64,000 bases of DNA from positions 105,772,001-105,836,000 of the forward strand of contig NC_043000.1 of assembly GCF_006345805.1 (NCBI RefSeq), read 5' to 3'. Origin of the DNA: Octopus sinensis (taxonomy: Eukaryota). The translations under genes were made by a program, and so were the position numbers. The notes beneath the pieces are model-generated. The model was given only the letters and a program-made list of their open reading frames with translations, was not told the DNA's origin and did not search any database. Of this stretch, positions 1-53,764 are shown piece after piece; within the stretch, counting starts at the first letter, position 1; each line of letters begins with the position of its first letter.

Positions 1-2999
1 TAAGGACATGTGGTGTGATGACTCTTTAACTAGCATAGAAAGCAGATGTATAATGATGATAATTTTCTTACAAAAGAACTCAATTGCTTAAAATGTTAGG
101 TACACACATGCATAAATCTATCTTAACTACATTTTAGAGCCATTATAGCCATCTAATAATGCACAAAGCCTGTTACATTCACTATCCATTTATTTCAAAA
201 GGTGAAAATAACAATTTTTTCTTTGTGTTTTAGAAGGCTCTAGCCTTGCCCCTTTCATGAGATAATTGCTTCAGTTTCATCACACAATCTCAGAGCAGGC
301 CACTTGCCAAATTAGTACAATCTGAACTGTGCATATGTATGTATGTATGTATATATATATCATCATCATCATCATATATGCACACACACAATATACCAAC
401 TATAGTCAGTAAGTAATAAAAACATTACACTACTAACAACAAAATTCTAAGTTCAAACAAACCCTGTCAATGACTGGGTTTGCAGTATTATCTACAGATA
501 CATGACATTCAGCAATTCCCTGTTCACTCTACATATTCCACAACAAACTTGTAAACCACAAGGCTATCCAGCTATGAGGTAACAGCAACCCATGCAAATA
601 TTCAAAAATCAACCTGTATTATCATACAGAGATGCTAAAAATACTGAGTGACAGTGAGAAGGAAAGCAGAAAGAGTAACAGGCAGAATTTTAATTTGAGA
701 AGTTCTAGTTTCCAGCCATTTGGCTGTGGGCATGCCAAGGTACCAAGGTAAAAAAAAAAAAAAAAAAAAAAGGGTCAGTAGCAAAAATACAAGTCAGGTA
801 TTTAAAAATATATAGTCAAAGAAGGAAGGGAAATACACATGACCTTTGTTAGATTATAAGGTTGATGTGGAGGTTGAACTTATGTGTGCTGATGTCTGTA
901 AGAAAAAAACCTGAGCAAGGACTGAGCTACAGTGGACTACAGTTTGGGGAAGGAATAATTGGGAAAAGTGTCAAGTAGCTTCAATGGATCAGGTGGATTT
1001 TCAGTGAAGGTGGTACACAGTTTGCTAGTTCAGAGAAGCAAAAAACCATTACAGCAGCCTCAGTCAGCTAGTGCTTGAAGTGAATATTTTATAATCAACT
1101 AGATGGTCTCTTACTGATCTTTGTGTATGTAGCAGCAGTGCTGTTCAGATATATAAGTAATACTTTAATGTGAGTTGCACTTGTGCTTTGTAGACTATCA
1201 GTAACTGATTAGGAGATTAAGATTTAAGTATTTTGGGGTATTGATAAGAAAGTCTAGACTTAAGGCTGGTTCAGTTGATTACACACCTCATTCAAAATGG
1301 TCAGCCTTGTATCAATAACTATCACAATTGATCCCAGTAGAACTTATGTGCAAGACAAAATACTGCAAGGTTTCTAATTCAGTATTCTACAATTTCTATA
1401 CAGAAGTTGATACAATGGACTACACTAACCACAACAAAAAACTGCTATTCATACAGTCAAAAGAAATTATTACTAATATTATTATATTAGCACTGTAATA
1501 GAAATAACTGTCTGATAGATATTTGTGACAAGCAACAGAATGGTGAATGTTGTTATAGCCACAGTGTGGTAGGATTTGCGACAGCACTAGAATGGTGTGT
1601 GTGTATCATTTGTACATGCTCATCACTAATGGTCTAAGTGTAGTGACAACGCCAGTAGTATGTTTTGTGATAGTACTTGAATGGTGAGAGATGCAGCACC
1701 AGTGATGAGTGTGTAAATGAGCTAGACTGATGAGTGTTGTGATTTGTGAATGCAGTATTCTTTTTAGACATAAGTGAAAAGCAGTCCCAACTGTTTTATA
1801 TAATATAATTAAGCTCAACTAGAACAACTTTTTAAATATTTGGAATTGTTAAGACAATGAAAATAAACAGAAATGCATTAGAAAATGGTGATCTATATTA
1901 GAAGACAAACATTTCAAAGTTAGTGCATTTCAGTGCATCTGTTAGTTTGCCTAGTAAACTATTTCAGCAAGCCCTGGTAGGTGGAGGTTAATAAGAATAA
2001 AACAATAAATTAATAAAGAAATTCACAAAATGTTGAGAGATAAAAATCATGTAAGACTCAAGAACAAACAAGGCTTTAAAATTTCAAGACAATTTACTAT
2101 TCTACATTAATAAGATGCTAGATGAAACAAAATATTTTTGTCAAAACCTAACACAACCTACCTGAATGATTTTATATCAGTACTAGCAGAATCATAGGCA
2201 GGTTGTGTGATACTAAATGCTTTAAGGGTATCTTTGTTGCAAATATCAATCTGATTTATCTTTCTTATTAGGTCGATTTTCTGGAGGAAAGCACGATTCA
2301 ATTACTATTTTTATGCTCAAATGCTTTATGCCTTAAGAAATTACACAAATCAATAACTAGAAAAGCTGTCAGAATCCTGATTATTGGGTCCCGTGTATGT
2401 CTCCTGTTGAAAACAATGTATTACTTCCCTAATCTTGAATTTAACTTTACACTAAATTGCTGCCATCACCACCAGTAACATTTGACTTACAATACCTGAT
2501 AAGCAGTACAATGAGCCAATGCGGGAATGTATCTATGATATTGGTAGGTCAAAATAATCATGAAAATAGTTGATTATGATAGTCAACACATATAAAATGA
2601 TAAGAATTAAGAAGATATTATACTGAGATGATGAACTGCAGTTGTCCAGCTTATTATTGCACACAAAAAGTAAACATTATTTATGATAATTGGAATCAGT
2701 TTTGTTGCAAGGCTTAGGTTTAAGATAATAACAAATCAATATCCAATAGGAGGACACCAATAATGTTTGAAGTCTCAATGTGTCTCAGACTTGACACACA
2801 TACTGAAAATTTCTACCAAGGATCTTAAAGCAAATGAAACCTATTGCTTCAAAAATTCATGCATAAAATTGAAATCTTTAAAGACTATTCCATATAGGCC
2901 AACTTGGAAAGGTGGATAAATTTCAAATGTTCAAACAATGGTACTGAAGAGGAAAAATTTATGACCACATATGTAAGACAAAATTTATTATTAACTTAC

Positions 3000-3291
3000 T
3001 GGCAACTATATAAGAATGCCCCGTGTGTGCAGGTTGAAGAATGGTGGCTTGTGACACTTGAACTTTTGGAATTGGTCCAGCATTCACAGCACTAGTCTGA
3101 GGTTGTTGTGTCAGCTGTTGAACAGGAGCTTGTTGTTGTGGAGCTTGTACTTGGTTTGGTTGAGGCTGCTGTGGTTGCTGCTGTTGCTGTTGTTGTTGCT
3201 GTTGTTGCTGCTGCTGAAGTTGTTGCTGTTGTTGCTGCTGCTGCTGCTGAACAACTTGTGCCTGAGTGACCACAGGTGACTTTGCAGTATT
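3000..3291 (-). CDS. RFX: Coding exon (polyQ/Q-rich activation region) of a probable RFX1/2/3-family transcription factor; gene continues beyond the left edge of the window
   Basis: Acceptor tttttttttaatcttcctaaacaaAG at 3293-3292 and donor GTAAGT at 2999. Open frame NTAKSPVVTQAQVV-Q10-L-Q14-PQQPQP...HTGHSYIVA, in phase 0 with the upstream exon. The SYIVA end resembles QYIVVT of vertebrate RFX1. The DNA-binding domain is not in the window. Confidence 0.7.
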
Positions 3292-3714
3292 CTTTGTTTA
3301 GGAAGATTAAAAAAAAAATGTTGATGTAAGTTATAGACAACATTAAAACATTATCAGAGCCATATCACATTTTTATGTTAGTGAAAGACACTTCTAATCA
3401 AGAAGAGCGAAGAGTACAAGAGTAGTTAGTTGATCACTAGTGACCTAGAAATTTAAAGTAGCAAATTATGACATAAGTTTTGATTTAATTCTCTCAACAT
3501 GTGAGGAGTTGAAAGTGAAAATGAAGAATTTAGAAGGATTTGAACCATAGTCTAGCAAACAATTTGAAAATCAAGAGAGAGACATTCATAAACCGAGCTT
3601 TGATTAGCATTAGGCAATAACTATTTCATCAGTGTTGAATATATTGTCAAAGATATTAGGAGTCACACATAGCTGTATGATTCTGGACTGCTGCCATACA
3701 ATAACAGTAGGGCA

Positions 3715-33932: not shown

Positions 33933-34811
33933 CAGGGTGTTCCAGAAGTCTTGGGCACATTTCAAGCCCTCATATCTGCTGGACTATGATTGGTAGTAAG
34001 ATGAAACTGGTACCATTTTAAAGCTAAATTCATTAATTTTTTTGTAATGCTAACGATTTTTTCAGGTCCAGTAATGGCGTTCATTCAACCAGAAAAGGTG
34101 TTGCGTCCTTGAATTTGCAAAAACTGAATCATGGACACTTGTTCAACATGCATTTTGCACAAAATTCCGAAAAGAGGCACCAGAAAGGAAGTTTATATTG
34201 AGATGGTATGGTAAATTCATGAAGGATGGGTGTTTGTGTCCAGCTAAGAGAACGGGACATGCCTCAACTTCAGATGATACGCTTGAGCGAGTTCGAACTG
34301 TCTTCGAGCGGAGCCCCCATAAATCAATCAGAAAAGCCAGTATGGACTTCATTTTCGAACATGATGGAGTGTCACCGCACTGGAGACTCAGGGTTAGACA
34401 GTATCTGAACACAACACGGCCAGACAGATGGATTGGACAGTCAGGGTGAGATGATCTCCTTCTCATGCCCTGGCCTCCAGATCTCACACCCTGCGATTTC
34501 TTTTTGCGGGCGTTTGTGAAAGGACTGGTCTATGTGCCTCCCCTTCCAAAAGACGTGAATGAACTGAAGGCCTGAATAATGAAAGCTGTTGCAATCATCG
34601 ACAACGCAATGCTGGAACGCATTTGGCAAGAATTGAACTATCAGCTTTATGTGCCGTGTGACTAACGGTGCTCACATTGAATATCTTTGAACATTCCATA
34701 AAAAAACTTGAAATTGCAGGCTTTCAGAATATATCAGATGCGTTTTTATGTCCTTAATAGATTTCGAGATATTCAATGTCAAAATGTGCCCAAGACTTCA
34801 GGGACACCCTG
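33933..34811 (+). mobile_element. Tc1/mariner-superfamily element (rosa/DD41D-like), internally deleted
   Basis: 30-bp TIRs CAGGGTGTTCCAGAAGTCTTGGGCACATTT with 2 mismatches and TA on both flanks. HTH region fused directly to FEHDGVSPHW...RWIG...WPP-DLTPCDFFL...NGAHIE. Confidence 0.92.
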
Positions 34812-46599: not shown

Positions 46600-46945
46600 T
46601 TAGTAACCGCCTTACTGACACTTGTGCTGGTGGCACATGAAAAAACATTTGAGCGAGGTTGTTTCCAGTGCCGCTGGACTGGCTCCTGTGCAGGTGGCAC
46701 ATAAAAAGCACCATTTGAGTGTGGCCATTGCCAATACTGCCTGACTGGCCCTTGTGCCGGTGGCATGTAAAAGCACCCACTACACTCTCGGAGTGGTTGG
46801 CGTTAGGAAGGGCATCCAGCTGTAGAAACTCTGCCAGATCAGATTAGAGTCTGTTGCAGCCATCTGGTTTGCCAGACCTCGGTCAAATCGTCCAACCCAT
46901 GCTAGCATGGAAAGTGGACATTAAACGGTGATGATGATGATGATG
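46600..46945 (+). repeat. (GAT)n-tailed retroposon copy
   Basis: GGTGGCACATAAAAAGCACC subrepeats followed by the conserved tail. Confidence 0.75.
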
Positions 46946-47217
46946 AATGTTGCAATGGGAGGTAGTGCCTTGATGACATTTTGGGACAGCTGCTGATCAT
47001 ATATGTAATGTTTTCCACAGAAGAATGGTATAACCAACATTTATAATTGTGTGTTGGTGGCAGGGAGTTTATATATTTCACTGTCTCTTTTGTTTGTTAG
47101 GTATTTCATAGATATCTCCCACTCTTTGATTCCAAAAGCATAACCGTCAAGATGTGGCATGATGTAATAGTTACAAATTCAAGAGAGGCTACACTTCATG
47201 TTAATATTATCATCATC

Positions 47218-48896: not shown

Positions 48897-49293
48897 CTAG
48901 CAGTATAGCCCAGCGTTGCTCAGGCTTCTTTTCTTTTCAACCCTTTAGAATTGGAATTTTTGAAAAGTAAAAATTTTGCATTATGTAACTTGTTATTCTC
49001 TTTAAGTGAACATTTTTCTGGTTGAAATACACCGAAAAATGGCGACACAGCAGTCAAAAAATCGTAAAACAGGGATTTTCATAGAAAAAAAAGCACCTTT
49101 TTGATGTAAATAATTTTTGGTGTTAACATGGTCCGATTTGAATATTTTCTTCTACGGAAGGAAGAGCAAGCGTTCTTCTATCATACTCTCAATTTTGGTC
49201 AACTTGCAACGCAGGGTCTCGGAGGAGATAGTGTTAGTTGAAGGCTACCAAACCTGCCATACACAGACAACTTCAGCTTTATATATAGAGAGA
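48897..49293 (-). mobile_element. Non-autonomous Helitron
   Basis: Minus strand starts A|TCTCTCTATATATAAAGCTGAAG and ends with an imperfect GC-rich hairpin plus CTAG|T; no TSD. Confidence 0.7.
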
Positions 49294-49479
49294 TATATCA
49301 TCATCATCATCATTTAACGTCCGTTTTCCATGCTAGCATGGGTTATATATAACTTATAAAATAAGGGCAAAAGAAAAGTTCTAATGCCAAATATGCTGAA
49401 AAAAGACAAAATTGTCAATAACCGTTATAATTTATGTGTCTCGAAACAAGCCGATAGAAATTTCTAAAACAGTCCGTTA

Positions 49480-49540
49480 TTACCGTATTGGTCCCAATTT
49501 CGGGGTTAATTCAAAAGAATTTTCCCCTCCTCAGCGATAA
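49480..49540 (-). ncRNA. Type I hammerhead ribozyme, intact catalytic core
   Basis: UUAUCG-CUGAGGA-GGGG-AA-AAUUC-UUUU-GAAUU-AA-CCCC-GAA-AUUG-GGAC-CAAU-A-CGGUAA: all three stems pair; AUA cleavage triplet, predicted cut between 49486 and 49485. Confidence 0.85.
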
Positions 49541-49630
49541 ATACATGACATAAATGAAATACTTGTCAATAACCATTATAATTTATGCGTCTTGAAACAA
49601 GCCGATAGAAATTTCTAAAAATATCTGTTA

Positions 49631-49691
49631 TTACCATATTGGTCCCAATTTTGGGGTTAATTCATAAGAATTTTCCCCTCCTCAGCGATAA
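49631..49691 (-). ncRNA. Hammerhead ribozyme copy, probably inactive (G12A)
   Basis: Same fold as 49480-49540 but CCCC-AAAA instead of CCCC-GAAA (change at 49652). Confidence 0.65.
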
Positions 49692-50117
49692 ATACATAAG
49701 ACATAAATGAAATACTTACTCATACCCATGGAAAAAGTGAGCACTAAGTCCTGAGCAGACATAAGTACCCCAAATATATCCAAAATAGAAAATCTTCAGC
49801 ACATCTCAAGACACGTGTGATTTGAACTAGAAACTTTCACAGAGTGAGATAATCCGGAAGTGAACACTACTAAATTTACAACTAATGTAAGATAAAATTT
49901 TTTCGAAAAAAAATTTTATCAGTGGCCAGCATATCAAAAAATACCTTTAAAGGGTAAATTTATAAATAACTTATATAATAAGGGCAAAAGAAAATTTCTA
50001 ACGCCAAATATGCCAAAAAAAGACAAAATTGTCAATAACCATTATAATTTGTGTCTCGAAACAAGTGCTTGCTTTTTCCATGGGTATGAGTAAGTATTTC
50101 ATTTATGTCTTACATAT

Positions 50118-50178
50118 TTATTACTGAGAAGGGGAAAATTCTTATGAATTAACCCCGAAATTGGGACCAATACGGTAA
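50118..50178 (+). ncRNA. Hammerhead ribozyme copy on the opposite strand, probably inactive (G8A)
   Basis: UUAUUA-CUGAGAA-GGGG...CCCC-GAAA-UUGGGACCAA-UA-CGGUAA; core G8 replaced by A (50129) and first stem I pair mismatched. Confidence 0.65.
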
Positions 50179-50414
50179 TAACGGACTGTTTTAGAAATTT
50201 CTATCGGCTTGTTTCAAGACACATAAATTATAATGGTTATTGACAATTTTGTCTTTTTTCGGCATATTTGGCATTAGAACTTTCTTTTGCCCTTATTTTA
50301 TAAGTTATTTATAAATTTACCCTTTAAAGGTATTTTTTGATATGCTGGCCATTGATAAAATTTTTTTCGAAAAGATTTTATCCTACATTAGTTATATATA
50401 TATATATATATATC

Positions 50415-50920
50415 GAATTAAACCAGCCAGGATCCCTGGTCTGGTGGTACGTAAAAAGCACTATCCGACTCGTGGCCGTGGCACGTAAAATACTCCAATG
50501 CGACCGTACGACAGGCACCCTTGCCAACCCCCTTTGCTTGTGAAGACATGTTGGGGCAAGCGAAACCGAAATCGAATTGAACCAGCCAGGATCCTGGTCT
50601 GGTGGTACGTAAAAAGCACTATCCGACTCGTGGCCGATGCCAGCACCGCCTCGACTGGCTTCCGTGCCGGTGGCACATAAAATACACCAATCTGACCGTG
50701 GCCGTTGCCAGCCCCGCCTGGCACCTGTGCAGGTGGCACGTAAAAAGCACCCACTACACTCACGGAGTGGTTGGCGTTAGGAAGGGCATCCAGCTGTAGA
50801 AACATTGCCAAATTAGACTGGAGCCTGGTGCAGCCTTCTGGCTTCCCAGAACCCCGGTCGAACCGTCCAACCCATGCTAGCATGGAGAACGGACGTTAAA
50901 CGACGATGATGATGATGATG
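50415..50920 (+). repeat. Young CpG-rich (GAT)n-tailed retroposon with tandem subrepeats
   Basis: A unit of about 55 bp repeated at 50421-50478 and 50580-50636, followed by the conserved tail. Confidence 0.75.
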
Positions 50921-53089: not shown

Positions 53090-53610
53090 CGGGCCTAATA
53101 GAGGTGATGACAAGTGATTGAGACCTTTGGTGATATGCTGTGCTTGAGAAGACTCATCAAGCCAAATGAAATCATAGTCGTGGCTGTTCCAATGCCATGT
53201 GAATGGCACCAATGAAATTGTAATTGTGGCCATAGCCAGTAGCATAATCTTCAAATGTTGGGCATCATGGAGGTGATGACTAGTGACTGCGACCTTTGGC
53301 AATATGCTGTGCTTGAGCAGGATTGTCAAGCCAAGTGAAATTGTACTCATGGCCGTTGCCAGTGCCATATAGATGGCACCTGTGAAATTGTAGTTGTGGC
53401 CATTGCTGGTATTATCTAAATGGCATCTGTGCTGGTGGAACATAAAAAGCATCCACTACACTCTCGAAGTGGTTGGCGTTGGGTTGGACATCCAGATGTA
53501 GAAACCATGCCAAATCAAACTGGAACCTGGTGCAGCCCTCCAGCTTACCAGTTCCAGTCAAATCGTCTAACCCACGCCAGCATGGAAAACGGATGTTAAA
53601 TGATGATGAT
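53090..53610 (+). repeat. (GAT)n-tailed retroposon, longer variant with subrepeats (inverse copy at 55623-56110)
   Basis: Repeated GACCTTTGG..ATATGCTGTGCTTGAG unit and the conserved tail. Confidence 0.7.
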
Positions 53611-53764
53611 ACGCACACACACATATATATATATATAGGCATATATACATGCAAACATATGTATATATATATCTCACACACACACACATTAATGGACAGA
53701 ACTGTAGTGTTAAAGCTAACAAACAGCAACTACCACCACCACCATCCAAGGGTATCAGATTCCT

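Follow-up and report, generated by a model that had tools for sequence, protein, structure and literature searches.

The repeats around a hammerhead ribozyme in a 64,000-nt stretch of the Octopus sinensis genome (the window, that is, the whole stretch analysed) are probably one insertion of a ~465-nt non-coding family that carries a conserved type I hammerhead and was likely mobilised in trans by a Penelope-like element (PLE). It is well supported that the family is a non-autonomous retrozyme of PLE type with predicted self-cutting; this kind of element is already known, and the family does not constitute a new class. The original prediction of a non-autonomous, ribozyme-bearing retroelement of retrozyme or Penelope type is upheld by the copy number, the lack of an open reading frame, the conservation of core and stems, and the PLE-type ends.

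All three hammerhead motifs that had been proposed in the window are real (Table 1), with the core intact in copy 1 and mutated in copies 2 and 3. The complete core and stems claimed for copy 1 are confirmed by its sequence and by a type I structural descriptor, which has one match in the window and none in 150 Markov-simulated windows. The core consists of CUGAGGA (C3 at 49534), GAAA and AUA with H17 at 49486; stem I has 6 bp, stem II 4 bp followed by AA/AA and a further 5 bp, and stem III 4 bp. For copy 2, the distance of 151 nt and the core change were correctly described and the second substitution was overlooked; for copy 3, the opposite strand and the core change stand, and the broken closing pair is additional. 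That copy 1 folds as a hammerhead holds for the motif, but the minimum-energy prediction is another fold, 4.8 kcal/mol lower. Stem-permuted controls have similar energy gaps (median p 0.37, 29 copies), and a conserved 'off' switch fold is not supported for this reason. An Rfam scan, which had been named as a check, gave no hammerhead match anywhere in the window, and none of 30 RF00163 loci fetched from the genome is a member of the ~465-nt family.

Table 1 Features of the insertion (positions in the window; q, position in the natural monomer at locus L009:1501-1965)
Feature	Position	Strand	Details
Hammerhead (HHR) copy 1, type I, intact core	49480..49540	-	predicted cleavage 49486/49485
Hammerhead copy 2	49631..49691	-	G12A (49652) and C1.1>U; predicted inactive
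Hammerhead copy 3	50118..50178	+	G8A (50129); stem I closing pair broken (A.C); predicted inactive
Long arm, ~1.2 units plus 151-nt duplication	49343..50065	-	q145-464, q1-183, q29-~245; HMM map
151-nt tandem duplication, locus-specific	49412..49717		q183 joined back to ~q29-33
Link from tail to next ribozyme, q331-465	49746..49880	-	predicted pairing with q16-45 and q130-160
Inverted arm, q1-~330	50064..50393	+	HMM map and sequence
~85-nt tail between short and long 3' end sites	50307..50393	+	contains palindromic hairpins

The insertion consists of two arms joined 5'-to-5' at 50064/50065. The 3' end of the long arm is the short site (TAAGTT at ~49351) and that of the inverted arm is the long site (CATTAGTT); both pass into (AT)n, and the ~85-nt tail is found at one of the insertion's two ends only. 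The 151-nt tandem noted earlier is a local duplication, the family period being ~465 nt (natural monomers at loci L009 and L019). From the presence of ribozymes on both strands it had been concluded that a transcript in either direction would have met a hammerhead. This layout arises as a side effect when PLEs insert head to head, and hammerhead pairs 100-700 bp apart on opposite strands are already reported in the available part of PMC4209133; thus, the layout needs no function of its own.

Other repeats are found in the window. A SINE/RTE-like repeat whose copies end in (ATG)n is present at 49300-49345, 50410-50920, 46600-46946 and 53400-53620, and two of these copies flank the insertion inside the same (AT)n tracts. 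The segment at 48898-49290 is presumably a non-autonomous element, with ends resembling Helitron/HINE-type repeats. A mariner-like transposase fragment (weak HTH matches) and a polyglutamine-rich minus-strand frame, maybe a host exon, are seen at 34075-34449 and 2959-3297.

A first look at the 2.72-Gb genome gave 2,834 candidate copies. Exact matches in the genome number 2,936 for a family 19-mer and 347 for a 34-mer spanning the ribozyme, compared with 0 for either control. From the first 100 listed 19-mer matches, corresponding to ~63 loci by hand count, we extrapolated a rough lower bound of ~1,800 loci. The unit contains no open reading frame, its sense frames being closed, and it has the size and composition of non-LTR retrozymes (non-coding, ~150-1000 nt, low GC, type I HHR). 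Two ribozymes at unit spacing occur in 3 of 58 unbiased loci (L126, L143 and L154), a sample without any long array. For three natural monomers taken as circles, strong folding is predicted for the sense strand (z = -4.4, -2.0 and -4.2) and not for the antisense strand (-1.7, -1.3 and -1.0). Two long-range helices of the monomer are 96-97% paired, with one-sided changes only and 0 double compensations, a point against the favoured explanation. The literature on hammerheads in octopus and cephalopods and on octopus PLEs, in the parts available, does not describe the family, although supplements of PMC7229834, PMC4209133 and a recent preprint (bioRxiv 10.64898/2026.07.22.740005) might list it; the available text of PMC7761336 makes no mention of cephalopods.

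We measured conservation in 38 loci selected through a motif lying ~90 nt away from the ribozyme, with one piece per locus, counting a variant as shared if present in at least three copies. Shared variants occur in 0 of the 11 columns of the catalytic core and in 50 of 144 flank columns (Fisher p = 0.017). All four bases occur at N7, and 30 of these 38 unbiased loci have an intact core. Based on 33 copies (the three window copies and 30 unbiased loci), 91% of cells in the stems are paired, compared with at most 41% when the structure is slid. There are 79 two-sided changes affecting 9 of 22 pairs, for which shuffle counts are not probabilities because the sequences are related. Compensatory changes are present in all three stems, and the paired set includes distal stem I, so that loop 1 is an internal loop.

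We also placed changes on a tree based on the non-ribozyme columns of 92 pieces, part of which were chosen by the ribozyme motif and are hence biased. Pairing is kept in 21 of 23 stem changes on internal branches; at the tips, 44 changes keep and 53 break it (hand sum). No core change falls on an internal branch, compared with 5.2 expected. The apparent internal-branch changes, one at H17 and seven at pair II.3, suggest tree noise or mosaic copies. Many copies have A10.1-U11.1 or G10.1-U11.1 in place of the usual G-C pair, which counts against the favoured explanation; stem II pair 3 is G-C in 50, A-U in 44, G-U in 4 and A-C in 2 of the first 100 of 347 matches (hand count). Rare variants accumulate at similar rates in the core (0.017) and the flank (0.020-0.029). 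Thus, copies decay neutrally after insertion, and selection on the ribozyme acts only via successful source copies. Given a core without shared variants, a free N7 and compensated stems, we conclude that the ribozyme was selected in the source lineage. The preferential conservation of core and stems across genomic copies, on which the original prediction depended, is therefore found.

The anatomy of insertion was analysed in 58 unbiased loci, all from contig C1. These include 43 head-to-head pairs and 0 tail-to-tail pairs. By their arm ends, 36 pairs are long plus short, 1 is long plus long, 0 are short plus short and 6 have an odd end. The short end lies at q~245 and the long end at q~330, ~85 nt apart. 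The one-long-one-short arrangement is thus seen in 36 of 37 classifiable pairs (binomial 3e-10), a count in which at least one insertion (L108) appears twice owing to local duplication and L132/L134 are possible duplicates. Both end types adjoin (AT)n in the junction display, and several 'single' arms carry, by eye, a tiny inverted stub of the short site. In 17 of 34 long-plus-short pairs neither arm is contained in the other. Therefore, both arms were copied from RNA, and we reject fold-back, in which one arm would template the other, as the general route.

The family copies are truncated at the 5' end, form partial tandems, include an inverted 5' copy, carry a tail on one side and lie in an AT-rich/(TA)n target. 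The ends show the two-start-site 'tail' pattern of PLEs. For PLEs, the available part of PMC8557442 describes partial tandems, a 5' copy in inverted orientation, a one-sided tail of 30-40 bp and a (TA)n bias, and in that of PMC11167929 a purified PLE cuts and extends both strands in vitro, starting at two internal sites that bound the tail, with the strands alike. The long inverted repeats at the locus could also be those of a MITE or satellite, or accompany a host-maintained ribozyme, the inverted repeat being a DNA transposon end and the motif incidental or host-serving. This explanation is largely refuted and hardly credible, as the inner junctions are variable, the two outer ends are offset by a constant ~85 nt and many copies consist of one arm. 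The similar rare-variant rates in core and flank also indicate that individual copies are not under host selection.

A second explanation, that the copies are 5'-truncated pseudo-LTR ends of an unsampled autonomous PLE, is very improbable. It draws on the heavy 5' truncation of PLEs (PMC8557442, in the available text) and on the fact that our examination covered 50 of 5,029 GIY-YIG candidates in the genome. Against it, arms that pass the unit continue into the previous monomer, one arm is 2.6 units long (L154), pieces with odd ends have no common continuation, and there is no PLE-protein match at arm 5' ends, although such matches occur elsewhere in those loci.

Some of the GIY-YIG candidates have frames of 775-883 aa, and locus L168 encodes RVT_1 and GIY-YIG domains with a linker, C-x4-C-xx-C, that fits the Neptune motif as described in the available part of PMC8557442. 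No sequence shared with the monomer was found in 50 (30 + 20) of the 5,029 GIY-YIG loci using DNA, HMM and covariance model searches, no similarity to it was found among the 30 RF00163 loci, and no ORF with RT and GIY-YIG is present in the family copies. One lead to a partner, L242, was rejected as a one-off chimera of three repeats. At L242:2600-3260 a third hammerhead family is fused to the ~465-nt family where the two have a short word in common, right in front of the tail; a single RT carrying both RNAs may here have switched templates, and the chimera represents one event, locally duplicated.

The genome contains further hammerhead repeats. A second, unrelated family with a canonical type I hammerhead matches RF00163 (L181-L210, e.g. 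L186/L187), and one of its loci is tandem with a ~431-nt period. The third family (L245-L264) is older and has a short palindromic stem III; it ends in (AT)n, apparently at two sites, with a head-to-head copy at L250. An abundant GIY-YIG PLE family (L038, L031 and L053) has ~780-aa frames and a putative U3-A8 core hammerhead variant ~70 nt from the 3' end (by eye, in the 3' UTR).

To consider the template, we examined the 5' ends of the arms. Among the 60 arms extending as far as the cleavage site, only 2 end close to it; 19 of 109 arms are longer than 480 nt, the longest noted being that of L154. As 5' ends do not accumulate at the cleavage site, we rejected a linear template that is cut so as to begin at that site. 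Run-through of the site and arms longer than one unit fit a circular template, without proving it. Within a locus, pieces resemble one another more than they do the median other copy in 35 of 37 tandem and 68 of 77 inverted comparisons (excluding L108 and L143), and no position-specific variants were found among them. Clustering by locus without such variants points to a monomer bottleneck; gene conversion or a re-used linear monomer could also be the source of the similarity. A circle, as proposed earlier (PMC4209133 and PMC7229834, in their available parts), explains the arm lengths, the run-through, the clustering within loci and the folding of the sense strand.

The same PLE parasitism could instead rely on an uncut linear multimer as the template, or on a linear monomer copied repeatedly through template jumps. 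The ribozyme would then serve another step, such as release from host read-through or late protein-assisted cleavage. We consider this unlikely, though not negligible. According to the available text of PMC11167929, HHR mutants insert in vitro, so that the PLE HHR is dispensable there, the HHR is protein-assisted, no reads end at the HHR site, and the main template is uncut RNA; the last point counts against the circle. Run-through of the cleavage site is equally expected of uncut RNA. A further point against the favoured explanation is that 8 of 9 Xenopus retrozymes failed to cleave in vitro (bioRxiv 10.64898/2026.07.22.740005, in the part available). Yet in a lineage of uncut tandems the upstream and downstream units should diverge over subfamilies 15-25% apart, whereas the units cluster by locus without recurrent position-specific differences. 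The rarity of loci with two ribozymes also opposes a linear template and implies that tandems must be regenerated.

None of the runs recorded as RNA contains the stretch. Most of the unit is covered by contigs of three presumed-RNA runs, which do not reveal ends, strand, level or circles. That no circle was seen in them counts in favour of a linear template. Joints that go back by 456/459 nt in these contigs are also expected from tandem DNA. The ribozyme is preceded, 30 nt upstream, by a conserved donor-like GTAAGT signal at q27-32 (window ~50090-50095), and a pyrimidine tract is followed by a TAG at q210-213 (window ~50273-50276). These two signals could delimit an intron with the ribozyme inside it, in keeping with the retained spliceosomal intron of PLE terminal repeats; no spliced joint is seen in the presumed-RNA contigs or the genome, which does not prove its absence. 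The unit also contains GTTCGAATC, which we take to be a B-box-like Pol III promoter motif. A Pol III promoter is thought unlikely due to the many T runs.

Returning to the reading in which a PLE mobilises the family in trans, a source copy with two tandem ribozymes, rare as these are, would be transcribed and probably cleave itself to a monomer, and this may be ligated into a circle, a step that we favour by a narrow margin. A PLE protein (RT/GIY-YIG), very probably the enzyme concerned, would nick both strands of the (AT)n target. Reverse transcription would begin at internal positions of the RNA, namely two fixed sites with ~85 nt between them, each strand using one, as seen in the pattern of ends. 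Two 5'-truncated cDNAs would join head to head, and copying beyond a full unit would give partial tandems and occasionally a new two-ribozyme source, structures that are observed among the loci. The inserted copies would then decay neutrally, with the ribozyme selected only through successful sources, as the variant rates indicate. We tentatively go further, at somewhat less than even confidence, and propose that the family is a genomic record of animal retrozyme insertion by Penelope machinery from a ribozyme-made circle, with catalysis kept by purifying selection in vivo despite being dispensable in the one PLE system studied in vitro, an RT that rolls through the cleavage site for up to 2.6 units and one start site per strand. 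If so, the single internal start site per strand would imply an asymmetric PLE dimer that reads the ~85-nt structured tail as a portable mobilisation signal.

The family resembles animal non-LTR retrozymes as characterised in the available parts of PMC7229834 and bioRxiv 10.64898/2026.07.22.740005. Shared features are a non-coding, low-GC unit of a few hundred nt in thousands of copies, a canonical type I HHR with a 6-bp stem I and a 4-bp stem II, a self-paired monomer and co-occurrence with PLEs. In these sources, animal retrozymes are proposed to be non-autonomous PLEs that move by way of RNA circles. The preprint argues from co-occurrence and pLTR homology and, in its available text, does not mention molluscs. 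In contrast to those retrozymes, the octopus family, instead of forming tandem arrays, occurs mostly as dispersed insertions that span <1 to 2.6 units. It has explicit head-to-head arms and staggered ends, whereas 'inverted' occurs in the available preprint text in a reference only. Its stem II is extended via an internal loop and its stem III has 4 bp, and it is known from DNA copies, from which the circle is inferred.

With the Neptune and Poseidon PLEs that carry GIY-YIG (PMC8557442, PMC11167929 and PMC4209133, in the parts available) the family shares truncation at the 5' end, partial tandems, a 5' copy in inverted orientation, a tail confined to one end, AT-rich/(TA)n targets and an HHR upstream of the 3' end. 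Unlike them, it has no ORF, and its HHR is canonical rather than minimal. The tail is ~85 nt compared with 30-40 nt in PLEs (PMC8557442 and PMC11167929, same parts), a difference that counts against the favoured explanation, and start sites are used one per arm, in contrast to the lack of a strand difference in vitro (PMC11167929). The non-autonomous Chlamys elements, e.g. MRC1 (PMC8557442, likewise in part), are also non-coding PLE parasites with pseudo-LTRs and head-to-tail copies, but they are algal and mostly without an HHR. Their 3' ends are in general similar to those of an autonomous partner, whereas no such partner was found here among the 50 GIY-YIG loci.

What is new is the combination in one record of selection on the ribozyme, the one-long-one-short end rule, the ~85-nt tail and the run-through of the cleavage site. 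In the available parts of the respective sources, the function of the HHR in endonuclease-bearing PLEs is called still unclear (PMC8557442) and the enzyme that moves animal retrozymes is left as a hypothesis (PMC7229834). Here, one short non-coding family combines a selected ribozyme with an integration signature unique to PLEs, in hundreds to thousands of datable copies. The unit also offers a minimal substrate (465 nt, with a defined tail and start sites) on which circular versus linear templates and the one-site-per-strand rule may be compared with purified PLE protein. Since core and pairing are kept and the ends are of PLE type, the family likely spreads as a self-cutting RNA parasite of PLEs.
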